DNA of 64,000 nucleotides from Candidatus Staskawiczbacteria bacterium RIFOXYB1_FULL_38_37. Lineage in GTDB: Bacteria > Patescibacteriota > Minisyncoccia > Minisyncoccales > Staskawiczbacteraceae. Location: the NCBI GenBank assembly GCA_001822075.1, contig MHPK01000006.1, positions 58,977-122,976 on the forward strand, read 5' to 3'. Positions 6,092-57,477 of this stretch are shown here, in pieces; position 1 is the stretch's first letter, and the number at the start of each line of letters is the position of its first letter. Made by a program: the position numbers and the translations under genes. The notes beneath the pieces were generated by a model. The model did not search any database, was not told the origin of the DNA, and saw only the letters and a list, made by a program, of their open reading frames with translations.

Positions 6092-6093
6092 TT

Positions 6094-6192
6094 GCGATAC
6101 TAATATACTAATTCATGCTAATTATACTAATGTGTGATACGAATTATATTTATTCGCATCATTAGTATGCATTCGCATATTGGCATCGCATT
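6094..6192. repeat. repeat family A copy 1 (~99 bp imperfect palindromic intergenic element)
   Basis: gcgatactaatatactaattcatgctaattatactaatgtgtgatacgaatt...ttcgcatcattagtatgcattcgcatattggcatcgcatta is nearly identical to 12756-12855. A 36-bp reverse-oriented fragment sits at 37902-37937. Confidence 0.85.
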
Positions 6193-7873
6193 ACTTGTTA
6201 AATTTTACTCTTCTCAAAAAAGCTGGAATTTCCCATTCTTTTTCCTGCGCCACTCTCTTTTTTTCTTCCTGTTCTTGCACTTTTTTGACGTCAAGCCCGC
6301 TCCTTCTTATGGCTTTTTTGGCGGGAGCTGAAAATTCTTCAACAATACTTAACCTTTTTTCACCAGCTGGCGACAAACCGGCTGAAACCGACGTATTGCC
6401 GAAAACAGGCGCTAAAATTTGGCCATCCTGTTTTTCTGTCGGCTTTTGGGAACTGCCGGATTTTTTTGCGCCGGGCTTTTTTGTTTTCTTTTGCTTGTTT
6501 TTCTTTTCAGCAATGCTAATTTTCTTTTTTGGCTTTTCGGGCTTTGCGGCTTCCGGCCCTGAAACTTCTTTTATAATTGGGCTCTCAAACTCGTCTTCTA
6601 TAAATTTGCCTCCGGCTGCCCTGCCTGTCATTAAAATTGTAGTTTTTATTTTATTTTTTAATTTATGGTTTTTTGAAATGCCAAAAATAATTTTGGCTGC
6701 GGGGTTTGACTCTGCAATATGCCTGCTGATTTTTTCAACTTCAAACATTGAAAGGGTGTCGGACCCTGATATATTAAACAGAATTTTTTCAGCCTGAAAT
6801 TTACTGCTCTGCAGCAAAGGATTTAACAAAACGTTTTTGCAAATTTTATCTGCCCTATCTTTGCCAGACTCTTCAATGGTGTTTAAAAAAGACATATTTC
6901 CCCTGCCCCTCAAAATCGTCCTTAAATCAGCAAAGTCTATATTTATAACTCCTGGATTATAAATCAAATTTATCAGGCTTTCCAAAGAGTCCGTAAGGCT
7001 TTTGTTTACAACAGAAAAAGCTTGGGTAATGGGAGTGTTGGCATTTATAATTTTAAATATCTTTTCGTTCGGTATTACCAATGAAACGTTTAAAAGCGGC
7101 TTTAATGCCCTTAATGCGTTTTGGGCTGTTTTATGCTTGCTTTTTCCTTCAAATTTAAAGGGCATTGTAAATATCCCAAAAGTTATTACTCCGCAATCGC
7201 GGGCAATTTCAGCAAAAACTTGCGCAGCTCCAGAACCTAATCCCCCGCCCAATGAAGCAATTAAAATTACAATATCCTGGCCTTTCAAAATGCTTTCTAC
7301 TTTTTCTTTTGCCTGCAAAGCTGCTTTTTTTCCGAGCTCTAAATTGGACCCAGTTCCCAGTCCGCGAGTTAAATTTTCTCCGAACCAAAAATATTTTAAT
7401 CCAGGCCTTTTCTTAAGAGCCCTGATGTCTGTGTCTGCCACAAGAAAGCTTGCTCTTGGCAAAGACCTTCCTATTTCAGAAACAATTGACCCTCCCCCGC
7501 CGCCAATTCCAACAACCTTAATTTTTGCCTTAAATAAAGATTCATCGCGAGAGTCGGCTAGTTTTGTCTGGGGTTGAACTATTTTTCGTTTTTCCGCAAT
7601 ACTCTTTTTAATTATTTTTTTCGTCTTTTTAGATTTTTTAACTTTTACCTGTTTTTTTACGGCTTTAGATACTTTTTTTACCCGGTTAAATAATTTCTTT
7701 TTGGAAGAAATTATCGTTTTGCGGTATTTAATCGGGTGAATCTTTTTTATGTTTTTTTTGGCCTTTGGTTTTTTAGCTAAAAACTTCCTGCTTTTTACAG
7801 GCTTTGTTTTTTTTACAGCTTTGCGATGTTTAACTGAATAAATTTTTAGTCTTGCCTTTTTTGGTTTGGCCAT
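6191..7873 (-). CDS. ftsZ: cell division protein FtsZ with ~125-aa Lys-rich N-terminal extension and long basic C-terminal linker
   Basis: VGIGGGGGS and GGGLGSGAAQVFAEIAR tubulin/FtsZ GTP-binding motifs, plus the C-terminal IPAFLRR peptide. The N-terminus is a histone-H1-like K-rich tail. Confidence 0.85.
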   Translation of the reverse strand: MAKPKKARLKIYSVKHRKAVKKTKPVKSRKFLAKKPKAKKNIKKIHPIKYRKTIISSKKKLFNRVKKVSKAVKKQVKVKKSKKTKKIIKKSIAEKRKIVQPQTKLADSRDESLFKAKIKVVGIGGGGGSIVSEIGRSLPRASFLVADTDIRALKKRPGLKYFWFGENLTRGLGTGSNLELGKKAALQAKEKVESILKGQDIVILIASLGGGLGSGAAQVFAEIARDCGVITFGIFTMPFKFEGKSKHKTAQNALRALKPLLNVSLVIPNEKIFKIINANTPITQAFSVVNKSLTDSLESLINLIYNPGVINIDFADLRTILRGRGNMSFLNTIEESGKDRADKICKNVLLNPLLQSSKFQAEKILFNISGSDTLSMFEVEKISRHIAESNPAAKIIFGISKNHKLKNKIKTTILMTGRAAGGKFIEDEFESPIIKEVSGPEAAKPEKPKKKISIAEKKNKQKKTKKPGAKKSGSSQKPTEKQDGQILAPVFGNTSVSAGLSPAGEKRLSIVEEFSAPAKKAIRRSGLDVKKVQEQEEKKRVAQEKEWEIPAFLRRVKFNK

Positions 7874-12749: not shown

Positions 12750-12755
12750 ATAGGT

Positions 12756-12855
12756 GCGATTCTAATATACTAATTCATGCTAATTATACTAATGTGTGAT
12801 GCGAATTTTATTTATTCGCATCATTAGTATGCATTCGCATATTGGCATCGCATTA
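12756..12855. repeat. repeat family A copy 2
   Basis: About 95% identical to 6094-6192. Confidence 0.85.
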
Positions 12856-13233
12856 ATTACAGTCTTGAGGGCAGCTTTCAGAAGTTTCAGGGCAAACGCA
12901 AGCTAAATTATTTTTAACTTTGCCGCAATCAGGATCTGTTTCCAAACAAATCCCATCTCCGCACTCATCTAAACATACAGAAAACCCCTGGCTGTCTAAA
13001 TAATTTATTTCGCCTTCAGCCTGCACTTCAACCTGAGGACTTGAATCCGTAATATTTTGGTCGTCAGTGTTCTGCTGATCTGTCTGAATTTCTGTGTTAG
13101 CGCCGCCAGTGGTGTTTTGCACTTCGATTCCTATAGTACCGATATATTTATAAAACAAAAATATGCCCAGTAAAATTACTATGAGAATTATAATGGAAGT
13201 TATTAAAATCTTCTTGTCCATTTTTGCAAACAT
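12853..13233 (-). CDS. small membrane-anchored Cys-rich protein
   Basis: N-terminal TM helix, then a Q/T/D-rich linker and a C-terminal CxxxC-rich module. Confidence 0.35.
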   Translation of the reverse strand: MFAKMDKKILITSIIILIVILLGIFLFYKYIGTIGIEVQNTTGGANTEIQTDQQNTDDQNITDSSPQVEVQAEGEINYLDSQGFSVCLDECGDGICLETDPDCGKVKNNLACVCPETSESCPQDCN

Positions 13234-16636: not shown

Positions 16637-17551
16637 TTAAACTTTTAAATACTTTTTTACAACTATTATGCTTGAAATAATGCCAACGGCAATTCCAAAT
16701 CCTAATTGTATTAATACCAAAATCCACAAATTTGTCAAGAAATAATCAAACAAATTAAACCCTGGCATAATAACAGAAATTTTGGGAGACGTTAATAGAA
16801 CCAACGCAAATGAAATTAAGAAGCAGAAAACAAATGCTATAAACCCGTAAATTATTCCCTGGATTATAAATGGCCCGCGAATAAACCAATCAGAAGCTCC
16901 TACAATGCGCATAGTGGTAATTTCCTCTTTTGAATTATCAACTGCCAGCTTTATTGTGTTAAACACAACGGACGCTGCTATTATAATTAAAACAATTCCC
17001 AAAAAAATTCCGAACTTGTTTATGGTGCTTGTTATTTCATAAATTTTTTCAATAGTGTCTTTTTTTTCATAGAAATCAACGTTTTCTATTAAGTCTGAAA
17101 AGCTTGATGTTTGCAATGCATTTGCCACTTGTTCGTACTGCAAAGGGTCGCCATTAGTGGTAATGCTCAAAGACGGCAAAAAGGGATTGCTGCCAACTTG
17201 TTCTATGGCGCGGAATAGAACTTCATCTCCCTGGTGGTTTTCGCTAAAAATTATAAATGCCTGGTCTTGCGAAATATATTCAACTTTTTTAATTTCAGGC
17301 AAAATATTTAAAATTTCTTCTTTTACAATTAGAATATCCTGCTCGGCTGTGCCGTCCTTAAAGTAGGCTGTAATATCAATTTTGTTTTGTATCTCTTCTG
17401 TTAAATAAGAAGCCACTCCCTGAAAAAAGAAAAGCCCTGTCACTAGCAGTATTGTGATAATCAAAATAAATATTGTTGCCACAGAAACTCCTTTGTTTCT
17501 GAAAAAGTCCTGAAATGCAAATTTTGTTGCCCTAGAGATATTTGTAAACAT
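16637..17551 (-). CDS. ftsX: cell division ABC transporter permease FtsX
   Basis: Four TM segments with a large periplasmic loop, located downstream of ftsE. Confidence 0.85.
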   Translation of the reverse strand: MFTNISRATKFAFQDFFRNKGVSVATIFILIITILLVTGLFFFQGVASYLTEEIQNKIDITAYFKDGTAEQDILIVKEEILNILPEIKKVEYISQDQAFIIFSENHQGDEVLFRAIEQVGSNPFLPSLSITTNGDPLQYEQVANALQTSSFSDLIENVDFYEKKDTIEKIYEITSTINKFGIFLGIVLIIIAASVVFNTIKLAVDNSKEEITTMRIVGASDWFIRGPFIIQGIIYGFIAFVFCFLISFALVLLTSPKISVIMPGFNLFDYFLTNLWILVLIQLGFGIAVGIISSIIVVKKYLKV

Positions 17552-17553
17552 GA

Positions 17554-17626
17554 AACATCGTCGAATTACGAATTTCTTGCGAATTTACGAATTCGTATAT
17601 CCGTATTAATTCGTTATTCGTTGATG
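17554..17626. repeat. repeat family C copy 1 (~73-bp MITE-like element with ~17-bp terminal inverted repeats and a central acgaattcgt palindrome) between ftsE and ftsX
   Basis: catcgtcgaattacgaatttcttgcgaatttacgaattcgtatatccgtattaattcgttattcgttgatg. Near-identical copies at 25318-25390 and 40387-40461, a split copy at 18315-18775 and a half copy at 38042-38078. Confidence 0.85.
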
Positions 17627-17630
17627 ATAA

Positions 17631-18311
17631 TTATATTATAAATCTTCCTTCAGCTTCGTCTCTTATAATTCTGCCTCCCACCAAAGTAATAACCCTTTTG
17701 CCTAATTTATTTATTATTTCTCTGTTGTGGGTCAATAAAATTACTGTGGCTCCGGCTTTATTTATTTTTTCTAAAAGATAAATCACTTCATAGGTATTAT
17801 ACGGGTCAAGGTTTCCTGTGGGCTCGTCGGCTATTATTATTTTGGGATGTATAACCAAAGCCCTTGCTATAGCCAGCCTTTGCTGTTCTCCCCCGGAAAG
17901 CTCTTTTGGAAAATTATCTTTTTTATCTTTTAGGCCTATTAAATCTAAAACTTTTTCAACTTCTTTTTTTATTTCACCCTGAGCTGTCCCCTTTACTTCT
18001 AAAACATAAGACACGTTTTCGTATACGGTTTTTGCGGGAAGAAGCTTGTAATCTTGGTAAATGCCCCCGATGCTTCTTCTTATTTTCTGTATTTCTGAGG
18101 CGTCTGCAACCAGCATATTTTTTTCTTTAAAATAAACTTCGCCGTAAGTCGGCTCTTCTAAGCCCAATATAAGCCTTGTCAAAGTTGTTTTGCCAGCTCC
18201 CGACTTTCCAATTATAGAAACAAACTCACCCTCTTTTATTTCAAAAGTTACGTCTTTTAAAACAGCCGTGTTAGAAGGATATATTTTTGTAACTTTATCA
18301 AACTTAATCAT
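17631..18311 (-). CDS. ftsE: cell division ATP-binding protein FtsE
   Basis: GKSGAGKTT Walker A, LSGGEQQRLAIARAL ABC signature, IIADEPTGNLD Walker B. Confidence 0.9.
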   Translation of the reverse strand: MIKFDKVTKIYPSNTAVLKDVTFEIKEGEFVSIIGKSGAGKTTLTRLILGLEEPTYGEVYFKEKNMLVADASEIQKIRRSIGGIYQDYKLLPAKTVYENVSYVLEVKGTAQGEIKKEVEKVLDLIGLKDKKDNFPKELSGGEQQRLAIARALVIHPKIIIADEPTGNLDPYNTYEVIYLLEKINKAGATVILLTHNREIINKLGKRVITLVGGRIIRDEAEGRFII

Positions 18312-18314
18312 ATA

Positions 18315-18775
18315 ACATCAGCGAATTACGAATTAATACGAATTTACGAATTTAAATTAACTATTCTTTTCGAAATAACTCCTTTATTTGTAAAATTTAT
18401 TAAAATGGCTAATTTGAGATTTTCGGTTTTCAAATAATTAATAACTTGATCTATATGTCTTTTCGAAAATATGTTTCCTTTTTTTAATTCTACAATTATA
18501 TTATCATCCACTAAAAAATCTAAATATTGTTTTCCAATTATCTTGCCCTTATATTTTAAATCACAAACTTTCTGTTCTAAAAAATTTAAGCCGCTCTGTT
18601 TAAAAGATTCTGCCAATGCTCTTTGATAATATTTCTCATGGTATCCGGGTCCTATCTCGTTATATACATCAAACGCACAGCCCATAATCGCATAACTTAT
18701 ATCAGGATATAAAATGTCTTTTTTTCTTATTTTTTTATATTCGTACATTCGTAAAAAATTCGCTATTCGTTGATG
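18315..18775. mobile_element. family C element containing a GxxExxY (PD-(D/E)XK) gene: candidate autonomous version of the 73-bp repeat
   Basis: Left half catcagcgaattacgaattaatacgaatttacgaattt (18315-18356) and right half attcgtacattcgtaaaaaattcgctattcgttgatg (18738-18775) flank ORF 18344..18748. Both its start and stop codons lie inside repeat sequence. Confidence 0.6.
18344..18748 (-). CDS. GxxExxY-family protein (PD-(D/E)XK nuclease-like, PDDEXK_3-type)
   Basis: GPGYHEKYYQRALAESF...DFLVDDNIIVELKKG...LKLAILINF. Paralog of 48329..48748. Confidence 0.65.
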   Translation of the reverse strand: MYEYKKIRKKDILYPDISYAIMGCAFDVYNEIGPGYHEKYYQRALAESFKQSGLNFLEQKVCDLKYKGKIIGKQYLDFLVDDNIIVELKKGNIFSKRHIDQVINYLKTENLKLAILINFTNKGVISKRIVNLNS

Positions 18776-19855
18776 TTTTTTAGTTCTGCTTGTATAAATT
18801 CTTCTAAGTGGCCGTCTAAAACGTTTTCTGTATCAGATGTTTCATATTGGGTTCTCAAATCTTTTACCATTTTATACGGGTGCAAAACATAAGACCTTAT
18901 TTGGTTGCCCCAGCTTGCTGAAATTGCCTCGCCCTTGATTTCTTTTAATTCTTTTTCTTTTTTTTCTTCTTCTAACTGGTAAAGTTTTGCCTGCAGTATT
19001 TTCATTGCCTTGTCTTTGTTTTTGCCTTGCAGTCTTTCTGCCTGCGAAGAAACAACAATGCCTGTTGGCATATGGGTTATTCTTATAGCAGACTCTGTTT
19101 TATTTACATACTGGCCCCCGGGGCCCGAAGCCCTAAATGTATCAATTTTCAAATCCTCTGGCTTTACCCCGTTAGAGACATCGTCTCTAACGGGGTTTAT
19201 TTCGGGCAATACGTTGACTAAAACAAAAGAAGTGTGGCGGAGCTTCTGGGCTGAAAAAGGAGAAATTCTGACTAATCTGTGCACGCCGGTTTCCTTTTTC
19301 AAAAATCCGTAGGCAAATTTTCCTTTTATCTCTAATGCCAAAGATTTAGTTCCAATTCTTCCTTCTGGCCCCCCTGCATCTCCAAATGACTGATGTAAAA
19401 TTTCTGTTTTGAATCCCTTTTTTTGGCAATATCTTTCGTACATTCGCAAGAGCATTGTTGCCCAATCTTGCGCATCCTGCCCCCCTGCCCCGGAGAATAT
19501 TTCCAGTATGGCGTTATTTTTATCGTATTTTCCTGAAAGAAAAATTTTAAACTCTTGCTTTTCTATTTCTTTCATCGCCTCGCCATAGCCTTTGGCGAAG
19601 GCGGGTTCATCATTTTCTTCCTGCAAAATTTCCAAATCCTCCTCAATCTTTTTTAAACTTTCTGTTTCTTGTTTTAATTCTGAAATTTCCTGCTGGACTT
19701 TACCAGCCTTTTCAGCATTTTGCCAAAAATCAGGCTTTAATGATTCTGCTTCAAGTTTGTTTAAATTTTTTTTCTTTTCTTTTACGTCAAAGGCGCTCCA
19801 CCAAATGATGGAGCCTTTTTTTTAATTCTTCAATTTTATTGATATTATCTGCCAT
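18763..19855 (-). CDS. prfB: peptide chain release factor 2, expressed via programmed +1 frameshift
   Basis: Frame 0 reads MADNINKIEELKKRLHHLVERL then TGA at the CTT TGA C site (19792-19786). The +1 frame continues DVKEKKKNLNKL... into the track ORF, which carries the SPF and GGQ motifs. Total 363 aa. Confidence 0.9.
19786..19792 (-). promoter_or_regulatory. RF2 autoregulatory +1 frameshift site CUU UGA C with upstream SD-like GGUGGAG
   Basis: Minus strand: ggtggagcgcctttgacg. This is the canonical prfB recoding site. Confidence 0.85.
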
Positions 19856-21148: not shown

Positions 21149-21151
21149 TGA

Positions 21152-21250
21152 TTATAATGCAAATCTACAAATCTTATGCTAATGAATGCGAAAATGCGAA
21201 TTCGCATTTTTGTAGATTAGCATACCATTCGCATTATTTGCATTTTTGTA
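21152..21250. repeat. repeat family B, intact empty copy (~100-bp imperfect palindrome)
   Basis: ttataatgcaaatctacaaatcttatgctaatgaatgcgaaaatgcgaattcgcatttttgtagattagcataccattcgcattatttgcatttttgtaattataa. Its two halves reappear at 48276-48323 and 48725-48772 split by a GxxExxY gene. Confidence 0.85.
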
Positions 21251-24047: not shown

Positions 24048-25315
24048 TTATTTATTGTTTTTTCTATGCTATTAATTTTAACAAGCTTAAGCTGTTTTTT
24101 ATTCCTTTCTTTAATTTCAACAGAGTTGCTTTTTCGGGTATTTTCAGACACTACAATCCTGTAAGGTATGCCTATTAAATCGGCTTCCGCAAACTTTTCT
24201 CCCGCTGTTTTGTCTTGCCTATCGTCGTATAATATCTCAATATTTTTCTTTTGTAAATCTGTGTATAACTTTTTGGCAATTTTATTTATTTTTGGGGCAT
24301 TTCCAAGCTGAATCAAGTGAACCAAAAACGGAGCCACTGATTTTGGCCAAATAAGTCCCTTTTCATCGTAATTTATTTCAGCTACAGCCCCCATAAGCCT
24401 GCCCAGCCCAATGCCAAAGCACCCCATTATAACCGGCTTTTCTGAACCGTCTTTGTCTTTGAATTTTAAATCAAACGGCAAAGAATATTTATTCCCCAGT
24501 TTAAAAATATTTCCAACTTCAACTGCTTTCTTTTCGTCAAAATCAGCGCCGCCGCATTTTGGACATTTAGAATGCTCGTTTTTTATCTCTTTGTTAATCG
24601 CTAATTTACACTTTTTACAAACGTAAATTATATCTTCTCCTACGTCAGTTATTGTTTGAAACTCGTCTGAATATTTTGAAAAACTTCCGCCAGACGCCAA
24701 AGTCTGGTGCGTATTTTTACCAATTCCGCATTCGCTAAAAATATTTAAATAAACTTTTATCAATTTGTCATAATATTTATCTAAATCCTCCTGAGTTGCG
24801 TGAAAAGAATACATGTCTTTCATTAAAAATTCTCTTGTTCTTAAAATTCCCGATTTTGCCCTTAGCTCATCGCGGAATTTTGTTTGTATTTGAAAAACAG
24901 ATAAAGGCAAATCTCTATAAGAAAAAATAATTTTTTTAGCCAAAGGAGAAACAACTTCTTCATGCGTGGGGCCCAAAGCATATTCTTTGTCACCAGAACC
25001 ATTCACCTTAAAAAGAATGTCTAAACTTTGCCACCTGCCGGTTTTTTGCCAGTTTTCTTTTGGCTGCAAAACAGGCATTAAAATTTCCTGGCTGGAGACT
25101 GGAGCTGACTCCATGTTTTTTCTTATTATGTTTTCAATTTTCTGCAAAACTTTAAATCCTAAAGGCAAAAAAGTGTAAACCCCTGCCATAAGCTGGTCTA
25201 AAAATCCAGCCCTTACAAGCAATTCATTCGAAATTGCCTGACCCTCGCCCGTCAAAATGCGCGAAGCGCTTTTGTCGGGTTTTTCTGTTTTATAAAATAA
25301 TTTTGACTGCAACAT
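24044..25315 (-). CDS. proS: prolyl-tRNA synthetase (short form without editing insertion; C-terminal CxxC zinc motif)
   Basis: Class II motif 2 with the ProRS-specific QIQTKFRDELRAKSGILRTREFLMKDMYSF. Confidence 0.8.
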   Translation of the reverse strand: MLQSKLFYKTEKPDKSASRILTGEGQAISNELLVRAGFLDQLMAGVYTFLPLGFKVLQKIENIIRKNMESAPVSSQEILMPVLQPKENWQKTGRWQSLDILFKVNGSGDKEYALGPTHEEVVSPLAKKIIFSYRDLPLSVFQIQTKFRDELRAKSGILRTREFLMKDMYSFHATQEDLDKYYDKLIKVYLNIFSECGIGKNTHQTLASGGSFSKYSDEFQTITDVGEDIIYVCKKCKLAINKEIKNEHSKCPKCGGADFDEKKAVEVGNIFKLGNKYSLPFDLKFKDKDGSEKPVIMGCFGIGLGRLMGAVAEINYDEKGLIWPKSVAPFLVHLIQLGNAPKINKIAKKLYTDLQKKNIEILYDDRQDKTAGEKFAEADLIGIPYRIVVSENTRKSNSVEIKERNKKQLKLVKINSIEKTINK

Positions 25316-25317
25316 AA

Positions 25318-25390
25318 GACATCGTCGAATTACGAATTTTGTACGAATTTACGAATTCGTATATTCGCAGCAAATTCGTTATTCGTTGAT
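25318..25390. repeat. repeat family C copy 3 (between proS start and rseP stop)
   Basis: gacatcgtcgaattacgaattttgtacgaatttacgaattcgtatattcgcagcaaattcgttattcgttgatg. Confidence 0.85.
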
Positions 25391-25398
25391 GATTACTA

Positions 25399-37209: not shown

Positions 37210-37902
37210 TTACGAAGTTTGAGTTTCTTGTTCTGCAACTTTTTTTTTGAATTCTTCCCAGTTTAAAGCTTCCCCATTCGCCATTTTGCATATGTCTTTA
37301 AACTGGCAATAACTGCATTGCCAGTTTCTGGGATAATCTGCAAGCCTGGCTGGAACCTCATTCTTTTCTACCTGGGCTTTCAAAGAATTAAATTTATCTA
37401 AAAGAGAATTGCATAGCTGTTCATCGTAATCCACAAAAAATTCTTTCATATCCTGCTGGTCTTTGTCTATGTAAAGCAGTATGCCTTTTTTAATGTTAAA
37501 AAAATGCAGATAAAGCTGTATCTGATAAACATTCTCCTCTTTGGGAGCTGCCATTCTTTTAAAAATCATGCTGTTTATTGATTTTATATCCAGCACATAA
37601 TTTTCATTTCCAATGCATAAAATTGCGTCCGCCCTGCCTGAAATTATTTCGCTCGTCGGAATTGGAATCTCTGTTACAACTCCTAATCTCAAGCGGTATA
37701 AAATGTTAAAAATGCTTCTGTGCATGTTTTCTCCACGTTCAAAAATGCGCATTATTCTTGCGTCCATTGGCTCGCGCGGAGCATTTTTAAACTTAAAAAA
37801 AACAGCGCGCGGGCATTTACCGGCATCTGTAATATAAAACCTCGTCTGGTCTTTATTTTTTTGATTATCCAAATAAAACTGGTCTATAAGCTCTTTTAAC
37901 AT
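37210..37902 (-). CDS. Cas4-like / RecB-family PD-(D/E)XK nuclease with 4-Cys (Fe-S-type) cluster, stand-alone
   Basis: N-terminal Cys (GKCPRA), motif II-III GRADAI...VLDIKS, QhxxY (YQIQLYLHF) and C-terminal CSYCQFKDIC. No CRISPR array or cas1 nearby. Confidence 0.6.
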   Translation of the reverse strand: MLKELIDQFYLDNQKNKDQTRFYITDAGKCPRAVFFKFKNAPREPMDARIMRIFERGENMHRSIFNILYRLRLGVVTEIPIPTSEIISGRADAILCIGNENYVLDIKSINSMIFKRMAAPKEENVYQIQLYLHFFNIKKGILLYIDKDQQDMKEFFVDYDEQLCNSLLDKFNSLKAQVEKNEVPARLADYPRNWQCSYCQFKDICKMANGEALNWEEFKKKVAEQETQTS

Positions 37903-37937
37903 AATGCGATGCCAATATGCGAATGCATACTAATGAT
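37902..37937. repeat. family A repeat fragment (right arm, reverse orientation) abutting the Cas4-like start codon
   Basis: taatgcgatgccaatatgcgaatgcatactaatgat is the reverse complement of the 3' 36 bp of family A. Confidence 0.75.
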
Positions 37938-38012
37938 ACTAATAATATTTAAATGATAACAATTATAAAAAATATATGCAAATTCCGACCGCTCAAACAC
38001 GTCTGAGCGATT

Positions 38013-38039
38013 AAAAAGCCGCCTTTCGGCGGCTTTTTT
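38013..38039. terminator. bidirectional intrinsic terminator
   Basis: aaaaagccgcctttcggcggctttttt. Confidence 0.65.
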
Positions 38040-38041
38040 AA

Positions 38042-38078
38042 ATTCGTACATTCGTAACAGATTCGTAATTCGTTGATG
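38042..38078. repeat. family C repeat, right half only, directly after rpsI stop
   Basis: attcgtacattcgtaacagattcgtaattcgttgatg matches the right arm of the split copy at 18738-18775. Confidence 0.75.
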
Positions 38079-38672
38079 TTACCTCTTGCTCCATTGCGGG
38101 GCTTTTCTGGCTCTCTTCAATCCGAATTTTTTTCTTTCCCTCATTCTTTCGTCTCTTGTCAAATAGCCTGCTTTTCTTAACCTTTTTCTGAAATTATTAT
38201 TAAAATCAACCAAAACCCTTGCTGTTCCATGCCTTACAGCTTCAGCTTGGGCATGCCTGCCTCCCCCTTTTACTTTTACTGTCACCCTGAATTTATCAAG
38301 GCACTTCATTTTTTTCATTGAAGAAACAGCTGTTTCCTGGTCGTCTTCCAAAGAAAAATATTGCTTGTAAGATTTATTGTTTACTAAAAAATCTTTATCT
38401 CCTTTTGTAAAAAGGCGCACGCGGGCCACAGCTGTTTTTCTCCTTCCAATGGCTTCAAAATAGCGGTCTGGCTTTCCGGTGCTTTCTTTTATTGATTTTG
38501 CAATTTCTTCTGAAATATCTTCATCTGCCATATCAGTTGCCTCATCCTGGTCAATTAAAACCACTGGAGTTTTTTCCTCCTTCGCCTCGCCGAAGCTTTC
38601 AGCGAAGGCGGGTTTCTTTTCTTCAGCAGGTTTTTTCTCTTCTTTTGTTATTTTCTTAGTTCTTGGTGACAT
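38079..38672 (-). CDS. rpsI: 30S ribosomal protein S9 with ~65-aa N-terminal extension
   Basis: C-terminal GGGRHAQAEAVRHGTARVL...KAPQWSKR, canonical S9. Confidence 0.9.
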   Translation of the reverse strand: MSPRTKKITKEEKKPAEEKKPAFAESFGEAKEEKTPVVLIDQDEATDMADEDISEEIAKSIKESTGKPDRYFEAIGRRKTAVARVRLFTKGDKDFLVNNKSYKQYFSLEDDQETAVSSMKKMKCLDKFRVTVKVKGGGRHAQAEAVRHGTARVLVDFNNNFRKRLRKAGYLTRDERMRERKKFGLKRARKAPQWSKR

Positions 38673-39403: not shown

Positions 39404-40384
39404 TTACTCTCCTGATTTTAACTCAAGCCCTAATTTTTTAATTTTTCTTTTTATTTCAGAAATAGCCTTATCCCCCATGCCTTCTAATTCCAATAAAGAC
39501 TTTTCTGATTTTTTCAAAATCCCGCCTACTGTTTTTATATTATTCTTCAGCAAAGCATTAAACGTTCTGCCTGTGAATTTTAAATCTTCAACGTTGATTT
39601 GGGTTGCATCAGAAATTTTTTCTTCTTTGGCAGATGAGCCTTTGCCATGAGCTGTTTTTTCTAAAGGCCTTATTGCTTTGCCTTCAAAAATTACATTAAA
39701 ATGCCTTATCAAAATATCACAAGCTTCAAAAAAGGCTTCTTCTGGAGTAATGGTGCCATCAGTCTCTATTTCCAGGCTCAATTTATCAAAGTCTGTCCTG
39801 TCGCCCACGCGCATATTTTCAATTTGAAAATTTACATTTTTAATGGGAGTGTAGATTGCGTCTAATGCAATTACCCCTATTTCTGATTTTTTAGATGCGC
39901 CAGAGGCCGCTTTTTCAACCTGAACTTTTCTTTGTTCTTTTGGCTCGTACCCCAGTCCTTTTTGTATATGTATTTCTATTTCAAGCTCTGTTTTTTTATC
40001 GCTTATTGTGGCAATGTGAGTTTCTGGGTTCACAAGTTCTACCTGGGAAGGAAGCTTAAAATCAGACCCTTTCACTTCTTTTTCTCCTTTTACTTTAAGC
40101 TCTATTTTGTAATCCTCTCCCTCGTGGATTTTAAATCTTAACTTTTTTAAATTCAAAAGAACCATTATCCCGTCTTCTAAAACTCCGGGGATTGTGGAAA
40201 ACTCATGGGGAGCGCCTTTTATTTTTGCCTCTGTTATGGCAACTCCCTGCAAAGAAGAAAGCAAAACTCTTCTTATGGCATTTCCAATGGTAACACCGTA
40301 TCCAGGATAAAGCCCTTCTATTTCAAAAACCGCTTGGTTATTTTTTTTATGAATTACTTTTGGGGGCAATGGAAGTGAAATCAT
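39404..40384 (-). CDS. rpoA: DNA-directed RNA polymerase subunit alpha
   Basis: 326 aa with N-terminal dimerisation domain and alpha-CTD (SLLELEGMGDKAISEIKRKIKKLGL). Confidence 0.9.
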   Translation of the reverse strand: MISLPLPPKVIHKKNNQAVFEIEGLYPGYGVTIGNAIRRVLLSSLQGVAITEAKIKGAPHEFSTIPGVLEDGIMVLLNLKKLRFKIHEGEDYKIELKVKGEKEVKGSDFKLPSQVELVNPETHIATISDKKTELEIEIHIQKGLGYEPKEQRKVQVEKAASGASKKSEIGVIALDAIYTPIKNVNFQIENMRVGDRTDFDKLSLEIETDGTITPEEAFFEACDILIRHFNVIFEGKAIRPLEKTAHGKGSSAKEEKISDATQINVEDLKFTGRTFNALLKNNIKTVGGILKKSEKSLLELEGMGDKAISEIKRKIKKLGLELKSGE

Positions 40385-40386
40385 GA

Positions 40387-40461
40387 AAAATCATCGAATT
40401 ACGAATTTTTTACGAATTTACGAATTCGTATATTCGTAGCAGATCCGTTATTCGTTGATGG
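40387..40461. repeat. repeat family C copy 4 (between rpoA start and rpsD stop)
   Basis: aaaatcatcgaattacgaattttttacgaatttacgaattcgtatattcgtagcagatccgttattcgttgatg. Confidence 0.85.
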
Positions 40462-41091
40462 TTACCTTGAATAAAATTCGAATATAGAAGAAATTTCCGC
40501 CGGAGCATTTACCTCTTCAAGGTTTGGATCTCCAACAGCTTTTCCTTCAAGTTCTTCTTTGTTTAAATTTAGCCATACCGGAGGCTCATATTTTTTAATC
40601 TGCGCTTGCAAATCTTTGAGCGCTCCTTTTTTCTTTTTATTTTCTTTTATAGAAATTATATCTCCTTTTTTTATGCTGTATGAAGGTATGTTAGCTGGCT
40701 TGCCGTTTATCAAAAAATAACCGTGAGACACCAGCTGCCTTGCTTGCGCCCTTGATTTGGCTATGCCCAAGCGAAAAATCACGTTGTCTAATCTTTTTTC
40801 TAATTTTTTTATAAATTCTTCAGCTATGTTTTCAACTTTTCCCATTTTAGCTAAAGATTCTTCTGCATATTTTTTAAACTGCCTTTCTGAAACTCCGTAC
40901 CATTTCTTCAAAGTCTGCTTTTCTTCTAAAGACTTTTTAAAAGCAGACGGAGAGCCCCCCCTTCTTTTTTTCTGGGGGCCCGGAGCATATGCTCTTTTTA
41001 CCATAGCGCATTTTTGTGAAAAGCACCTCTCTCCTTTCAAAAAGAGTTTTTGCCCCAAACGTCTGCAAGTTTTACATTGATCGTATCTCAT
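40462..41091 (-). CDS. rpsD: 30S ribosomal protein S4
   Basis: 209 aa with N-terminal Zn-ribbon-like CKTCRR...C..C and an S4 domain. Confidence 0.9.
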   Translation of the reverse strand: MRYDQCKTCRRLGQKLFLKGERCFSQKCAMVKRAYAPGPQKKRRGGSPSAFKKSLEEKQTLKKWYGVSERQFKKYAEESLAKMGKVENIAEEFIKKLEKRLDNVIFRLGIAKSRAQARQLVSHGYFLINGKPANIPSYSIKKGDIISIKENKKKKGALKDLQAQIKKYEPPVWLNLNKEELEGKAVGDPNLEEVNAPAEISSIFEFYSR

Positions 41092-43887: not shown

Positions 43888-43956
43888 AATCCTGTAAATT
43901 TTTAATTTTAAATTTTTAATTTTAATTCAATTTTCAATAACTAAATGTTTAAATTT

Positions 43957-45750: not shown

Positions 45751-45959
45751 AAAAATAGAATTATCCTTTGCTTAAAGAAATCCCTGCCTGCCGGCAGGCA
45801 GGTAAATACTTTGTCCTCAATTCTGACGACTTCATGATTTTATAATTTTACATCAAAATTTATTTTCTTGCAACACTCAAAAAACGCCGTTTTCGGCGTG
45901 TTTTAAAATTAGGATATTAAAAATTGATTTAAAATTTAAAATTTAAAATTGAAAATTCA

Positions 45960-46511
45960 TTACGTATACCTATCTGCCACAACTGATGCGGCAAATGACT
46001 GCGGTTTTATGCGCGGTTCAAATCCATTGCTTCTTATTAAGCCAACCACCTCTTTTACCATTTCTTTTGTTTTGCCGTGCTCGCCCACATCAGCATGGAT
46101 ATACTGAAATTGATAATTAAACGATGGTGTAGTATTTGCCCCTGCCTGCCGGCAGGCAGGAAATTCTTTTTCCAAAGTTTCTCTTAAAGACAATGCCAGT
46201 TCGCAAGACAAATAAACTTCCTGTAAAATCCTATTTTTCCAGTTTATGTTTGCAAACTTTTTTAAAAAGTTGTCGGGATAATGCATTTTTTTTAAAAAAA
46301 ATCTGCCGCCAAAGCCTGTTCTTAAAATCACAATAGCTATCGGAAAAAACGGCTTGTCTGATGAGGGTGAATCGCACCCCACCACAATTTCATATTGGGC
46401 ATCTGGAAATTCCTGCATATATCCAAAAATTTCTTTTTTTACCTGGTCAAAGTCTAAATTACCCTTGCTTGGGCTATAAAAATGCCCACTATTTAAAATT
46501 TCGCTACTCAT
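45960..46511 (-). CDS. hypothetical protein (possible RNase-H-like fold); contains a 20-bp palindrome within its coding sequence
   Basis: 183 aa with no firm family. cctgcctgccggcaggcagg at 46142-46161 encodes FPACRQAG. Confidence 0.3.
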   Translation of the reverse strand: MSSEILNSGHFYSPSKGNLDFDQVKKEIFGYMQEFPDAQYEIVVGCDSPSSDKPFFPIAIVILRTGFGGRFFLKKMHYPDNFLKKFANINWKNRILQEVYLSCELALSLRETLEKEFPACRQAGANTTPSFNYQFQYIHADVGEHGKTKEMVKEVVGLIRSNGFEPRIKPQSFAASVVADRYT

Positions 46512-47024: not shown

Positions 47025-47128
47025 CCCGTTAGAAGTCTGTTTTATATAGTTTTACAGCTAATTTAAACAGAACTCTGTTAGTTTAACGTCCCCCATTAGT
47101 GCAACGCCATGACTTCTAACGGGGTTCA

Positions 47129-48277
47129 TTAATTGAAGTAATCATTCAGGCATTTTTTAAATTCTTCCAGGTTTTCATTTTTGATGCGGAATCCCGATGC
47201 CTGCGCGTGCCCCCCGTAAGTTAAAAGAAAATCTGAACAGATCTTCATTGCGTCAACTGTATTTGTACCTTTCGGGCTTCTTACAGAACCGCAGGATTCC
47301 TTGTCCATTTTTCTATAAATAAAAGCTGGCTTTGAATATTCCTGTGAAATTATTGAAGCCACGGACCCCGCCAACACCAGCCTCCATGACGGATCTCCTT
47401 CAAAAATAATAGATTCCCCCTCATCTTTTTTTGAAACCCGCCTTTTTATTTCCTCAACTATGCTTTTTATAGTTTGTTGCTTATGTAAATTCTTGTCAAT
47501 TAATTTTTGGGCTATTCTCATGCACTCTTTGGCATCCGGACAAGTCAAAAGAAAATAAGATTCATTTTCAAAGTTTATGCTTTCTGCTGCGTTCAAAGCT
47601 GAAATAATTTTTCCTAAAGCGCCTTCAAAAATCGCTCCTTGGCCAATTATACCAAAAAACGCCCTTAATCCTGGCCTGAAAGTATCTTTTAAGGACCTTA
47701 ATCCCTGTTCTATAATTTTTTGGTTTTCATCAATTTGCGGGACCATATCGGCTATAGTGCCCAAAGCAGCTAACTCCAAAAAACTGTCTTCTAATTTTTT
47801 TGACATATTGTTTCCCAATATTTCTTTGCAAAGTTTAAAGGTTATGCCAACGTTAGCCATGCCTTTAAATGGAAAATCATCTATTTTCTGTTTCGGGTCA
47901 ACTATAATTGAGGCTTCCGGAGCTCCATCCAAAGTTTCGTGATGGTCTACAATTATAACCTCAAAACCCATTTTATTTGCTAATTTTACCTCTTCTATGT
48001 TTCCTATACCAAGGTCTAATGTAATAAAAAGAGCCGGCGCTTTATCTTTAAGCATATTCAAGCCGTTAAGGTTTATGCCATAGCCGTCTTTTTCTCTGTC
48101 AGGAAAAAAGGCGGAGTCAATATGCCCGCCCGAACTTTTAATCGCCTCTTCTAATATGACCACAGAAGAAATCCCATCTAAATCAGAATCTCCGTACAAA
48201 ATAATGCGCTCCTTATTCTGGACCGCTTTCTTGATCCTTTCTGCGGCTTTTTCTATGTTTTTAATTTTATGAATCAT
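47129..48277 (-). CDS. DHH-family phosphoesterase (RecJ/NrnA-like) with DHHA1 domain
   Basis: GDSDLDGISS, IIVDHHE and GGHAQASG (DHHA1 GGH motif). Confidence 0.75.
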   Translation of the reverse strand: MIHKIKNIEKAAERIKKAVQNKERIILYGDSDLDGISSVVILEEAIKSSGGHIDSAFFPDREKDGYGINLNGLNMLKDKAPALFITLDLGIGNIEEVKLANKMGFEVIIVDHHETLDGAPEASIIVDPKQKIDDFPFKGMANVGITFKLCKEILGNNMSKKLEDSFLELAALGTIADMVPQIDENQKIIEQGLRSLKDTFRPGLRAFFGIIGQGAIFEGALGKIISALNAAESINFENESYFLLTCPDAKECMRIAQKLIDKNLHKQQTIKSIVEEIKRRVSKKDEGESIIFEGDPSWRLVLAGSVASIISQEYSKPAFIYRKMDKESCGSVRSPKGTNTVDAMKICSDFLLTYGGHAQASGFRIKNENLEEFKKCLNDYFN

Positions 48278-48772
48278 AATGCAAATCTACAAATCTTATG
48301 CTAATGAATGCGAAAATGCGAATATCGGTTATTCTTTTGCTAAAGAATTTAATATCCTTTTAGGAACTATATATTTTTTTCTAAAATTGACTAAAATTCC
48401 TAGTTTTTTGTTCAAAGCAGTTAAATATCTTTTCACCTGATAATAATCTTCAGTGATGAGTAGTTTTTTAGCTTTTACTTCTAATATTATTTTATCTTCA
48501 ATTAAAAAATCGACTTTATTTCTACCTTCTGCCTCGCCTTCAAAAGCCGGAGGTAAAATTTTTTCTCTTCTGTAATTTATATTTATTTTTTTAAGATAAC
48601 TTTCTATAAGGTCGCAGTATTGTTTTTCATTAAGAAATTGACCTAACTCATTATGAACTGCGAATAGAATCCCATTAATTTTGTAAGATAAATCTGAATA
48701 AATTACTTTTTCCATAAAAATCACATTCGCATTTTTGTAGATTAGCATACCATTCGCCGTATTTGCATTTTA
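48276..48772. mobile_element. family B element split by a GxxExxY gene: candidate autonomous copy (empty copy at 21152-21250)
   Basis: Left half 48276-48323 (ataatgcaaatctacaaatcttatgctaatgaatgcgaaaatgcgaat) and right half 48725-48772 (attcgcatttttgtagattagcataccattcgccgtatttgcatttta) flank ORF 48329..48748. At 21152-21250 the same two halves are contiguous. Confidence 0.65.
48329..48748 (-). CDS. GxxExxY-family protein (PD-(D/E)XK nuclease-like), paralog of 18344..18748
   Basis: GILFAVHNELGQFLNEKQYCDLIESYL...VDFLIEDKIILEVKAKK...KLGILVNF. Confidence 0.65.
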   Translation of the reverse strand: MLIYKNANVIFMEKVIYSDLSYKINGILFAVHNELGQFLNEKQYCDLIESYLKKININYRREKILPPAFEGEAEGRNKVDFLIEDKIILEVKAKKLLITEDYYQVKRYLTALNKKLGILVNFRKKYIVPKRILNSLAKE

Positions 48773-50110: not shown

Positions 50111-51772
50111 CTAAGCCACTTCACGCTGGTAGCATTCCATACAGGCTATTTTTTGAAATCCAAGTTCTGGACTATAATAATGTTCAATTTCTTTATTGCA
50201 ATGTGCGCAAATTCCGCACTGCAACTCAACCATATGGCTAAAGGGTTTGTAGTGCTCTTGTGTGCGCCAGTCAAAATGCCTGTTTGGAAGCGGAATACCG
50301 TGCTCTTTATAAAATGCCAGCTCGTCTTTTGTAATATTATAACTTAATTTGGTTTCAGGGCATAAAATACGCTGTTTTGTAATTTCATCTTTTACATCAT
50401 CTATACTATCTGGCAAAGTGTCGGCTGTTATAATGTTTTCGTAATGCGGCTTTGAAGCCTCTTCCCACTTGGCGCCAAACTGAAGGGCTTCTGTTTTTGT
50501 CATGGGAAACTGCATGTGAGCCAAAGAAAGGTTGTATCCGGAATATGCGGCTGAGAGCGGCCAAAGCCTTCCCCACTCTCCATTTTTTTTCATATCGCTC
50601 TTAATTTTTTCAACCAAACTCTCATATTCTTCTTTTGTATATTGTTTGTTCAAAACACAATATTTCTTTTTTCGTAAACCCACACAACCAAAACAATATT
50701 CAGATTCCTCGCAAAAGTCTAAATAGCTACTATAACGACAATTAGTAGTGTAAAGATTGCATAGGTTGCCGTACGCGAACTGGTCCGACGACCCAAAAGC
50801 GCACTTCTCGCTTTTAAGAGCGCCCACCGAATCAATGATTTCTTTATTCTGAAAACCTCTAAAAACGTAATGGCAATTTTCCGATTCTTCAAGAAAATAA
50901 CATTGATGGCAATTTTTATCATTCGTGATAAGGTTTCCTGTGGAATTCACCGTCTGAACATTATAATTCTGTCGGTGCACAGCATCCTGTTGGATATGCT
51001 TCCAAAATTCTTTTTTTAATTTTTCAACAGATGCTCGCGATTTTAGGTTATATTCTTCAAGCTTTTTCTCGTATTCTTCTTTGGAATATGGCTGGTTTAA
51101 AATATGGTATTTTTTATTTTTTAGATTCCAGCACATAAAACAGTTTTGGCAGTTTCGGCAGTCATATAAAAATAAGCTGTCAATGCAGTCGCGGGAATTA
51201 AAAGAATATTTTAGGTTGTAACTTTTGAAACAAAACAGGCAATCGTATGAACGCTCCAGGTCAAAAGAATAAGTTACATCAATACATTTTTTACAATTTG
51301 CTAAACGATATCCATAGATGATTGACTCAATGCGAAAAGCGGAGCGCGTAAGGTGTGCGTCTTTTGATTCCCACAAATCATCGGCCCAATCACAATTAGT
51401 ATTTTTTGTGCCGACTTGGTGAGGGTGCGGAACTTTCGATTGCAGCTCAACAAGCTGGTCAATAAATAAACGCGAGGCATCATAGTCTTTTCCATATGTG
51501 AGCGGGTCCCAGGCATCGGATACAAATTCGTTCCTTTCATAAATGGGGAAAGGAACTGATTCTGGCAGAACCGTTATAATTGTTTTGCCGCTCAAGGCCG
51601 ATTTGCCAATTCTAAATCTCCCAAACACCCAAAAAGCCAAAAGATATTTAAAGCGGCAACTGGGGCACATGGTGGGCATGGGCAAATCCATCTTTTTGTA
51701 AAGGGAAATATCATCTGAATAGATGACAAAATCTTGATTACACTTTTGGCATTGTTTGGTTTCGGTATGCAT
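50111..51772 (-). CDS. cysteine-rich multi-zinc-ribbon protein, paralog P3 (most divergent)
   Basis: 553 aa. N-terminus CQKCNQDFVIYSDD...CPSCR, internal CVLNKQYTKEEYE module, C-terminus IACMECYQREVA. Confidence 0.55.
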   Translation of the reverse strand: MHTETKQCQKCNQDFVIYSDDISLYKKMDLPMPTMCPSCRFKYLLAFWVFGRFRIGKSALSGKTIITVLPESVPFPIYERNEFVSDAWDPLTYGKDYDASRLFIDQLVELQSKVPHPHQVGTKNTNCDWADDLWESKDAHLTRSAFRIESIIYGYRLANCKKCIDVTYSFDLERSYDCLFCFKSYNLKYSFNSRDCIDSLFLYDCRNCQNCFMCWNLKNKKYHILNQPYSKEEYEKKLEEYNLKSRASVEKLKKEFWKHIQQDAVHRQNYNVQTVNSTGNLITNDKNCHQCYFLEESENCHYVFRGFQNKEIIDSVGALKSEKCAFGSSDQFAYGNLCNLYTTNCRYSSYLDFCEESEYCFGCVGLRKKKYCVLNKQYTKEEYESLVEKIKSDMKKNGEWGRLWPLSAAYSGYNLSLAHMQFPMTKTEALQFGAKWEEASKPHYENIITADTLPDSIDDVKDEITKQRILCPETKLSYNITKDELAFYKEHGIPLPNRHFDWRTQEHYKPFSHMVELQCGICAHCNKEIEHYYSPELGFQKIACMECYQREVA

Positions 51773-56876: not shown

Positions 56877-56910
56877 AGTTAGTTTTTTGGCTCGAGCCAA
56901 AAAACTAACT
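56877..56910. terminator. perfect 34-bp palindrome, family E hairpin
   Basis: agttagttttttggctcgagccaaaaaactaact. Confidence 0.55.
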
Positions 56911-57444
56911 CAACTTATATCTTAGTTTGATTTTTTCTTGATTATCAATAAAATTAAGCAATCCAAACCGGATATATTTTTCCAAATTAAACAGTCTGGC
57001 AAAATCATCAATTTCTTTCTTGCAATCATACGGATGCAGAAATAGGCTTTCCTGCAACTCATAAAATCCTCCCATTTTTAATCTGTATCGCAATGCATTT
57101 CTGTCTTTTCTATGAGAATTAGGAATATCAAAAGCCACCATTCTCCATTTTCCATCCCATTTCCCTTTTTTATGACCCAATCGCCTAAATCTAAAATTTA
57201 TAACTCGCAGAATTCCTTTTTCAGTAAGAGAAACTAAAATTGATCCTTCGTAATTTTTCTTTTTTTCCAATAGCTTTTGTTTTTTGAGATCTGTCACTGC
57301 AGAAATTAACTGTTTTGATGTAAAACCATGAATGCCTTTTATTGCGTCGTTTAGTAAAATAAGCCGAGCGTCTCCATGGCGACCAACTTTTTCGCTGCTT
57401 GCGTAATATATTCTCCATAATATTTCTTCAACAATTTTATTCAT
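56905..57444 (-). CDS. PaaX-like protein: N-terminal winged-helix + C-terminal Cas2/VapD-like domain
   Basis: WRMVAFDIPNSHRKDRNALRYRLKMGGFYELQESLFLHPYD resembles the Cas2-type beta-alpha core. N-terminal HTH-like region. Confidence 0.4.
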   Translation of the reverse strand: MNKIVEEILWRIYYASSEKVGRHGDARLILLNDAIKGIHGFTSKQLISAVTDLKKQKLLEKKKNYEGSILVSLTEKGILRVINFRFRRLGHKKGKWDGKWRMVAFDIPNSHRKDRNALRYRLKMGGFYELQESLFLHPYDCKKEIDDFARLFNLEKYIRFGLLNFIDNQEKIKLRYKLS

Positions 57445-57477
57445 GCTTCCATTATATAAAACAGATATGAAATAGTA

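Follow-up and report, generated by a model that had tools for sequence, protein, structure and literature searches.

Arms of motif-array palindromes flank GxxExxY nuclease genes and recur without them in a candidate phyla radiation genome

Introduction

Why does a small gene sit at the exact centre of a palindrome that stands uninterrupted elsewhere in the same genome? The question is raised by a stretch of 64,000 nucleotides (nt; hereafter the window), with 37% G+C and nearly all genes on the minus strand, from Candidatus Staskawiczbacteria, a bacterium of the candidate phyla radiation (CPR). At 48276-48772, a gene of the GxxExxY family (GxxExxY-B) lies between the two arms of a palindromic repeat, family B, whose gene-less (solo) copy occupies 21152-21250. 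A second member of the same protein family (GxxExxY-A) is placed likewise in another repeat, family A. A reading made from the sequence alone had seen in this arrangement either the insertion of genes into palindromes or a mechanism that generates palindromes. The GxxExxY family comprises 18,374 clusters at 50% identity in a representative library. A 2012 survey of its superfamily gave the function of the PF13366 family as 'unknown' (PMC3424549), and full-text literature searches found no paper tying the GxxExxY/PF13366 family to repeats.

Results

A gene at the centre of a palindrome

The family-B element and its solo counterpart are made up as follows.

48276..48323, unstranded: family-B arm, type Y, downstream of the GxxExxY-B gene
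48324..48724, minus strand: cassette between the inner arm ends, 401 base pairs (bp), consisting of 5 nt, the GxxExxY open reading frame (ORF), and 9 nt
48329..48715, minus strand: GxxExxY-B gene, a 387-nt ORF for a PD-(D/E)XK nuclease of 128 amino acids (aa)
48725..48772, unstranded: family-B arm, type X, upstream of the GxxExxY-B gene; its inner 24 nt are ATTCGCATTTTTGTAGATTAGCAT
21152..21250, unstranded: solo (gene-less) family-B palindrome, about 100 bp, imperfect; centre GCGAATTCGC

The left arm (48276-48323) matches 21154-21201 of the intact copy at 48 of 48 positions, and the right arm (48725-48771) matches 21200-21246 at 45 of 47. By blastn, 48273-48327 aligns with 21151-21204 at 96.4% over 55 positions, with one gap. 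The halves share just AT (21200-21201) in the intact copy, and this dinucleotide is the exact dyad centre of GCGAATTCGC; GAATTC spans 21198-21203 within this centre. The initial observation that the arms of 21152-21250 bracket a GxxExxY gene at 48276-48772 is thus confirmed, and the split is central. The 139-aa ORF (48329..48748) first described there was rightly assigned to the family, as both TIGR04256 and PF13366 pass, but its length does not stand: it starts at an ATG inside the right arm, and the form deposited at NCBI has 128 aa. An assembly artefact can be ruled out, because independent assemblies from NCBI, ENA, and JGI agree on the structure; proteins identical to those of the window also occur in GCA_001822155.1 and in the ENA and JGI assemblies.

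The arms are inverted arrays, about 46 bp long, of a 7- to 8-bp motif (ATGCNAAT in family B, TACGAAT in family A), and the gene-bearing and gene-less forms have these terminal inverted arms in common. In the type-Y arm the modules run ATGCAAAT-CTACAAATCTT-ATGCTAAT-GAATGCGAAA-ATGCGAAT. The two arm types are asymmetric, with CTACAAAA serving as the inner linker in X and as the outer linker in Y. The outer ends of the element read ATAAT...ATTAT. The outer end of the type-Y arm overlaps the ATG (48275-48277) of a DHH/recJ-like gene and that of the type-X arm overlaps the pgk stop codon (48770-48772), so the element fills the whole pgk|DHH spacer. The solo palindrome occupies the spacer between gatA and the next gene, has TTATAA (itself palindromic, and partly the gatA stop codon) at both ends, and is predicted to form a hairpin of -32.2 kcal/mol (z -5.4). 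The ends of the 401-bp cassette are not inverted repeats, leaving it with no terminal inverted repeats of its own. A promoter and terminator scan of the element found no promoter-like site in the cassette and nothing in the arms, which are therefore not ordinary terminators.

The sole other GxxExxY paralog that phmmer finds in the window splits a family-A palindrome in the same way, at the centre of ACGAATTCGT. The family-A features are the following.

18305..18352, unstranded: family-A arm downstream of GxxExxY-A, including the GxxExxY-A stop codon
18344..18748, minus strand: GxxExxY-A gene between prfB and ftsE (TIGR04256, 3.3e-33)
18739..18778, unstranded: family-A arm upstream of GxxExxY-A, providing the final codons and the stop codon of prfB
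17549..17632, unstranded: solo family-A palindrome between ftsE and ftsX; centre ACGAATTCGT
25313..25396, unstranded: solo family-A palindrome
40382..40465, unstranded: solo family-A palindrome between rpsD and rpoA
38034..38083, unstranded: isolated family-A half copy, a single arm

GxxExxY-A is 134 aa long as listed and has a 113-aa form in other sources. Four CGAATTCG sites were observed in the 64 kb, against about 0.7 expected, and all four are the centres of intact palindromes. Of the 23 TACGAAT heptamers, 21 fall within the 1.3% of the window that these elements take up.

The GxxExxY protein

GxxExxY-B scores 80.7 bits against TIGR04256 (cut-off 35) and 85.6 bits against PF13366 (PDDEXK_3; cut-off 22); the corresponding scores of GxxExxY-A are 114.5 and 114.7 bits. 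The N-terminal helix motif is G-Y-H-E-K-Y-Y in A and a variant, G-QFLN-E-KQ-Y, in B. The positions that never vary in an alignment of 52 homologues include G15, N22, Y33, D69, F70, E79, K81, and Q93, with E30 almost as constant; the E...D...ExK constellation of the PD-(D/E)XK fold is present in GxxExxY-B. Its AlphaFold2 model is confident (pLDDT 90.6, pTM 0.85) and has an alpha-beta-beta-beta-alpha-beta core, with Cas4 and restriction nucleases as the nearest folds. Among the 150 best family representatives, about 20 have two GxxExxY domains in tandem (250 to 277 aa); such fusions, in effect single-chain dimers, suggest a dimeric active unit. Judged from its residues, its model, and the fusions in its family, the GxxExxY-B enzyme looks active and dimeric.

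A PDB sequence search with GxxExxY-B gave no match. Profile matches were confined to PF13366/TIGR04256, a sub-threshold HSDR_N_2, and a weak Cas4, with no transposase family among them. An anti-phage defence system was considered and set aside, PADLOC having yielded weak Cas4 matches only, and viral contigs scanned with a GxxExxY protein alignment returned nothing.

Arms accompany the gene in other genomes

GxxExxY-B gave 675 matches in CPR metagenomes, with 67 to 85% identity among the 120 matches listed; the B-type homologues in the loci that we examined (cited below by L numbers) have 71 to 79% aa identity. B-type genes at no fewer than five unrelated CPR loci have ATGCNAAT-motif arms. These loci are pgk|DHH, DHH|RNaseH, FtsX|HTH (L008), GT|GT (L011), and TP_methylase|CofD (L014), and L005 (79% aa identity) has the pgk-GxxExxY-DHH order of the window. 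The arms in L005, L008, L011, and L014 are inverted and built of ATGCGAAT, ATGCTAAT, and ATGCAAAT; B-type arm motifs are GCGAAT, GCTAAT, and GCAAAT. Wherever both arms are resolved (the window, L005, L008, L011, L021, and L039), the inner end reads ...GCGAAT(A), and in L005, L008, and L011 this end lies directly beside the gene. Some B-type arms also enclose a second small ORF, which is MazG-like in L019 (1118-1447; E 0.0012, below the Pfam cut-off) and a DUF7352 ORF on the opposite strand in L039 (1383-1658).

A-type homologues (66 to 75% identity) keep the order prfB-GxxExxY-ftsE in L046, L048, and L050, where the arms read CATCAACGAATAACGAAT...ACGAAT, and a Bacteroidota contig carries a 57%-identical A-type gene with TACGAAT arms at an unrelated locus. 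A-type homologues have four to seven ACGAAT motifs and no GCTAAT, so that motif counts cleanly part A from B. The sequence-only reading had proposed to compare the paralogs and their repeats for co-variation, and arm motifs do split by protein subfamily.

Similar arms occur further afield. In Bacteroides finegoldii, a GxxExxY gene between radA and an FAD protein gene has 30-nt inverted arms with three copies of CAGAGGAC (z 13.4), and a Treponema GxxExxY gene has a perfect 11-nt inverted pair (L053 2463-2473 and 2903-2913). The core of the Treponema pair, AATCCGTGT, is also included in a 26-nt repeat beside a Fusobacteria gene that is described below. In Gemmatirosa kalamazoonensis (L064 1000-1100), a complete CGCGGAT-motif palindrome follows the GxxExxY gene, which does not split it.

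Inverted flanks scoring at least 25 surround 8 of 12 GxxExxY genes. Among 118 further ORFs at these loci, 14 have them, and most of the 14 adjoin such arms (ftsE, for example). Inverted flanks are thus strongly enriched around GxxExxY genes. Because the association recurs in families A and B of the window, at five or more B-type loci and the A-type prfB|ftsE locus of CPR bacteria, in a Bacteroidota contig, and in B. finegoldii, it is general and not a coincidence, as had been argued, on a narrower basis, from the two cases in the window. Nor are the arms regulatory sequence of pgk or the recJ-like gene, which would have refuted the sequence-only reading. At the pgk|DHH junction of L019, arms and gene are both absent, pgk and DHH overlap, and the element lies one gene further on; moreover, arms are found at many unrelated loci.

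Gene-less copies

The 24-nt inner B arm, used to scan JGI metagenomes, was found in 30 contigs that come from several environments. The partner arm was fused with the same 2-bp overlap as in the window (L035, L044), abutted exactly (L016/L033, L026), or lay 14 to 29 nt away (twelve contigs). In other contigs it was 393 to 401 nt distant with one GxxExxY gene between (L021, L032), or 805 to 863 nt distant with GxxExxY and a second small ORF (L019, L039). One metagenome sample held at least nine solo copies at separate loci together with one gene-bearing copy, most of the solos sharing a 22-nt spacer, and L024 and L034 have the same 21-nt solo spacer at different loci. Since identical spacers of 21 to 22 nt stand at different loci, solo palindromes multiply as units. 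Spacers of 14 to 29 nt, compared by eye with the interior edges of gene-bearing copies, show weak AT-rich similarities only. A scan of genome contigs with a 20-nt arm, in a collection that does not hold the source genome, gave one chance match in GC-rich coding DNA of a metagenome-assembled genome of Pseudomonadota.

Gene-less copies turned up in every case inspected closely and are not limited to family B. Bacteroides has solo CAGAGGAC palindromes at gmd|fcl (in two species), at dnaN|exonuclease, and at lptB|der, the last with a 110-nt interior. In Gemmatirosa, a solo TTCACCACAGAGGAC palindrome (L065 640-830) is nested in an inverted repeat of CGCAGAGGGC motifs, and the TTCACCACAGAGGAC arm is common to Gemmatirosa and Bacteroides, across phyla. 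Together with its 20-kb extensions, the window holds three solo palindromes of family A, one of family B, and three of a further family, C, whose copies in the window are given here.

6093..6196, unstranded: solo family-C palindrome with B-like TGCGAAT motifs
12755..12858, unstranded: solo family-C palindrome, 96% identical to 6093-6196
37902..37945, unstranded: isolated family-C half copy

The inner ends of family C, GCGAAT and ATTCGC, are 7 nt apart. The C half copy belongs to a composite spacer (37902-38083) in which about 60 nt and then a GC-rich hairpin bearing a T-run (AAAAAGCCGCCTTTCGGCGGCTTTTTT) separate it from the family-A half copy; half arms of two families appear to be joined here.

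Age, constraint, and direction

The gene-bearing elements A and B are syntenic in species whose synonymous sites are saturated and are therefore old. The B element is syntenic in L005 and L039, with orthologous arms about 80% identical. Each subfamily has one GxxExxY gene in the 84 kb of the window and its extensions, in synteny that is conserved across species. The solo A palindrome between ftsE and ftsX stands at the orthologous site in L046, L048, and L050 with 85 to 93% identity, and the third codon positions of ftsE are 44 to 56% identical between these species. The A arms themselves are 78 to 93% identical, whereas third positions of the GxxExxY gene that they enclose are 49 to 56% identical. 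Repeated motifs and the positions of mismatches between arms are conserved, and linkers vary. That motifs and mismatched positions are both kept indicates a constraint that is sequence specific and does not concern hairpin stability alone. The sense RNA folds no better than the antisense RNA.

One solo copy can be dated. Solo B and the arms of the old gene-bearing B copy share 96 to 100% identity, and the orthologous gatA junction in L050 has 4 nt between the genes and no solo B. Given this close match, the mere 80% or so that the orthologous arms in L005 retain, and the absence from L050, solo B is by sequence comparison the younger of the two, and the matching gene-bearing copy the older.

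Discussion

A proposed nuclease-repeat partnership

From the observed anatomy, co-occurrence, co-variation, conservation, and intact active site, we tentatively favour a partnership resembling that of RAYTs (REP-associated tyrosine transposases, where REP stands for repetitive extragenic palindromic) and REPINs (REP doublets forming hairpins), in which an arm-flanked nuclease gene maintains or multiplies gene-less palindromes. Binding, cleavage, dimer action, copying, and a direction from gene-bearing to solo form are the steps that we infer. A dimer of the GxxExxY nuclease would bind its cognate arm motifs and cut at or near the inner arm ends, GCGAAT^ATTCGC. Cutting and repair would keep the arms conserved and would now and then copy gene-less arm pairs into new spacers. 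The gene-bearing copy would then be a vertically inherited 'master', with the solo palindromes as its non-autonomous partners. Of the two mechanisms between which the sequence-only reading had left the choice, the palindrome-generating one fits better, solo B being young, and insertion is weakened by the intact centres that remain uninvaded.

Several observations weigh against such a partnership. There is no clear target-site duplication at the elements examined. The X and Y arms are swapped relative to the gene between 48276-48772 of the window and the orthologous element at 9960-10462 of L005, with the gene's orientation in the operon unchanged; a transposon whose left and right ends are fixed would not usually show such a flipped asymmetry. 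Family-A solos are 82 to 89% identical to the A arms of the same genome, which is no closer than to the arms of other species, so family A shows no sign of recent copying, and for family C the 84 kb contain no cognate gene. The flanks of a Persicobacter GxxExxY gene lack any repeat, and a GxxExxY gene on a Fusobacteria plasmid has a 26-nt repeat that is direct, not inverted (L054 2440-2470, 2905-2935). Physical linkage alone could explain the co-variation of arms and protein. Finally, an unrelated 23S_rRNA_IVP gene for a four-helix-bundle protein (L011 8564-8935), about 1 kb from a GxxExxY cassette and between housekeeping genes, has the same arm-ORF-arm layout, with 54- to 56-nt inverted CAAAAT-motif arms (z 8.8). 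Because of this shared layout, the arms may be part of a generic hairpin cassette and not tied to the nuclease. Curators have reportedly remarked on a likeness in genomic context between TIGR04256 and the four-helix-bundle family of intervening sequences (IVSs).

Alternative explanations

The order of events could be reversed, as first proposed: a GxxExxY cassette resembling a homing endonuclease gene or an insertion sequence (IS) would enter pre-existing host palindromes at their dyad centres, where a dimer would cut the symmetric centre and repair would copy the gene in, using the 46-bp arms as homology. This would account for a split that is precisely central in both families A and B and for the solos with abutting ends (GCGAAT/ATTCGC; L016/L033, L026), which are perfect 'empty' versions. 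The orientation of the gene relative to the asymmetric arms is not fixed, as expected for a symmetric target. I-Ssp6803I is an example of a small homing endonuclease with the PD-(D/E)XK fold. A further precedent is given by IS elements that target REP centres (PMC1525189, PMC8450116).

We nevertheless consider insertion unlikely. If homing into palindromes were efficient, intact CGAATTCG centres would hardly have lasted, uninvaded, in four or more species at a distance of about 700 bp from the cognate A gene, as they have. The junctions compared include no orthologous site with a solo palindrome in one genome and the gene in another; sites have either the whole element or nothing, as at pgk|DHH in L019 and the gatA junction in L050. 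The arms accompany the gene at loci with no solo palindrome of the same family seen in 20 kb. Spacing between the inner ends of solos varies (-2, 0, 7, and 14 to 29 nt), which leaves no one centre sequence that could serve as the target. The copies that carry the gene are old, syntenic, and not recently spreading, and the one datable solo copy is younger than its gene-bearing counterpart. With arms that travel, centres that coexist with the gene, no polymorphism, variable spacing, and a younger solo B, insertion is the weaker reading.

Selection might instead act on RNA. The arms would pair into a stem enclosing the ORF in a polycistronic transcript, to be processed by RNase III in the manner of an IVS; solos would be host-selected intercistronic hairpins for processing or stability, and the nuclease would be cargo with no action on the arms. 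The predicted fold of the whole element does pair the arms around a 400-nt loop, the solo palindromes fold strongly and are kept at orthologous intercistronic sites, and all GxxExxY genes examined are sense-oriented in their operon, without a promoter. The IVS-family four-helix-bundle gene of L011 has the same layout, and there is a precedent in Coxiella, where RNase III excises the IVS, a stem-loop of 428 nt that contains an ORF (PMC4990558). However, the sense strand folds no better than the antisense strand, and of four orthologous solo palindromes, three have their more stable fold on the antisense strand. Conservation concerns the sequence and not pairing only, down to motifs and mismatched positions such as CATCAACGAATAACGAAT against CATCAGCGAATTACGAAT, and the arm motifs co-vary with the protein subfamily. 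Rfam searches gave no family match, returning tRNAs and sub-threshold matches to generic miRNA hairpins only. We therefore give an RNA cassette a low probability.

Long-lived synteny, strong sequence conservation, and motif arrays that resemble multi-site protein-binding arrays would also suit operators of a domesticated, non-mobile GxxExxY factor that regulates itself or its operon, with nothing moving today, but this is improbable indeed given that none of the catalytic residues varies, related genomes differ in their solo copies, near-identical solos stand at many loci in one sample, and the same arm type occurs in different phyla. Integron attC cassettes were rejected for want of an integrase and because the ORF here has one half of the palindrome on either side of it, not a palindrome at its 3' end.

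Comparison with known systems

The closest parallel to the proposed partnership is REPIN/RAYT (PMC3116915, PMC3337134, PMC2817692, bioRxiv 10.1101/2021.07.10.451892). Both systems have a nuclease gene that is flanked by inverted cognate repeats. The RAYT gene is usually single copy and vertically inherited, and the GxxExxY gene, with one per subfamily in the 84 kb and conserved synteny, may be so too; both have dispersed extragenic, gene-less palindromic doublets, subfamily-specific repeats, and a long-lasting association. However, RAYT is an HUH/Y1 (IS200-like) transposase, whereas the enzyme here is a 128-aa PD-(D/E)XK nuclease, and because it is not an HUH transposase the GxxExxY system is not a member of REPIN/RAYT. 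In addition, REPs are short GC-rich hairpins, whereas the arms here are arrays of about 46 bp made of 7- to 8-bp motifs; the gene lies exactly at the dyad centre of one repeat unit; and the hosts are CPR bacteria, Bacteroidota, and Gemmatimonadota.

An autonomous transposon with its miniature inverted-repeat transposable elements would likewise have terminal inverted arms in both forms, gene-less copies that are commoner and multiply as units, and some copies with extra cargo ORFs within the arms, as in L019 and L039. Unlike such a pair, the system described here has no recognised transposase, no clear target-site duplication, gene-bearing copies that are syntenic rather than mobile, and an arm asymmetry that is not fixed relative to the gene. 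In homing endonuclease genes too, a small nuclease gene is wedged among conserved housekeeping genes, with a putatively symmetric target, but here the uninterrupted 'targets' stably coexist with the gene, and no single site showed presence/absence polymorphism.

In the REP-targeting elements IS1397 and ISPpu9 (PMC1525189, PMC8450116), as in the family-B element, a palindromic extragenic repeat is interrupted centrally, or nearly so, by inserted coding DNA. IS1397 and ISPpu9 are complete ISs with an IS3 or IS110 transposase and their own ends, whereas here a bare nuclease ORF with 5 and 9 nt forms the insert, and the arms go with the gene into other genomes. The 23S rRNA IVS of Coxiella (PMC4990558) has a similar size (about 400 to 500 nt), a small ORF within long-stem inverted repeats, and vertical maintenance, and a four-helix-bundle gene of the same layout lies next to the GxxExxY element in L011. 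It differs in that the element here stands between the protein genes pgk and DHH, in a window without rRNA, and carries a different ORF family. Cas4, the closest solved fold (4ic1, 4r5q), has an Fe-S cluster module and a CRISPR context, both of which are lacking here, and is twice the size.

Other palindromes and neighbouring features

The window contains further repeats. A fourth palindrome family, D, with TTTAAAAT-type motifs, is present at 2941-3046, at 43897-43953 and 45901-45957, and in L058 (4044-4145); it includes two half copies, one on either side of alaS. Family D may be the counterpart of the CAAAAT-motif arms around the L011 four-helix-bundle gene. Another palindrome type is built on CCCCGTTAG...CTAACGGGG (window 19166-19196 and 47030-47125; L008 14734-14819), one inverted pair of which surrounds about 70 nt in the DHH|RNase H spacer. 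Palindromes of CCTGCCTGCCGGCAGGCAGG occur in several CPR loci (window 45766-45802 and 46141-46177; L008 11463-11500; L057 17979-18000), and the two copies in the window, 338 nt apart, straddle the 3' part of an RNaseH-like ORF (45960-46511).

Five paralogous Cys-rich ORFs of 550 to 589 aa (28189-29910, 31071-32840, 50111-51772, 55188-56840, and 57529-59244) adjoin TraG/TrwB-like ATPase genes; the copies covered by gene tables have no Pfam match, and an upstream motif common to these ORFs is found at 28126, 49954, and 59268. At 56878-57506, a 179-aa PaaX_M/Cas2-like ORF (56905-57444) lies within a 33-nt inverted repeat, GTTAGTTTTTTGGCTCGAGCCAAAAAACTAAC, that is 91% complementary. In L005, the 5' end of an RNase H gene seems to be duplicated around a GC-rich insert (11800-12100), and a SAM synthetase gene (1352-3832) contains an intein with a LAGLIDADG domain.

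Implications

If the partnership is real, GxxExxY proteins could form a second, independently evolved class of 'repeat-keeper', a RAYT analogue on a restriction-endonuclease fold, with each subfamily recognising its own arms and both creating and sustaining gene-less palindromes between genes in CPR bacteria, Bacteroides, and other phyla. We regard this broader claim as possible and put it forward with considerable reserve. The same logic may underlie the ORF-bearing hairpin cassettes that are called rRNA intervening sequences. In either case, the family now has a specific, testable partner in the inverted motif-array arms and their gene-less palindromic copies. A direct test of the hypothesis is within reach, since gene, arms, and solo copies also occur in two Bacteroides species that can be cultivated and genetically manipulated, B. 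finegoldii and B. ovatus. Were it borne out, it would assign a function to PF13366/TIGR04256, a large family, and would account for conserved intergenic palindromes that, in the streamlined genomes of CPR bacteria, are better conserved than the neighbouring coding DNA. It would also place a non-HUH nuclease-repeat partnership alongside the single known example, RAYT/REPIN.

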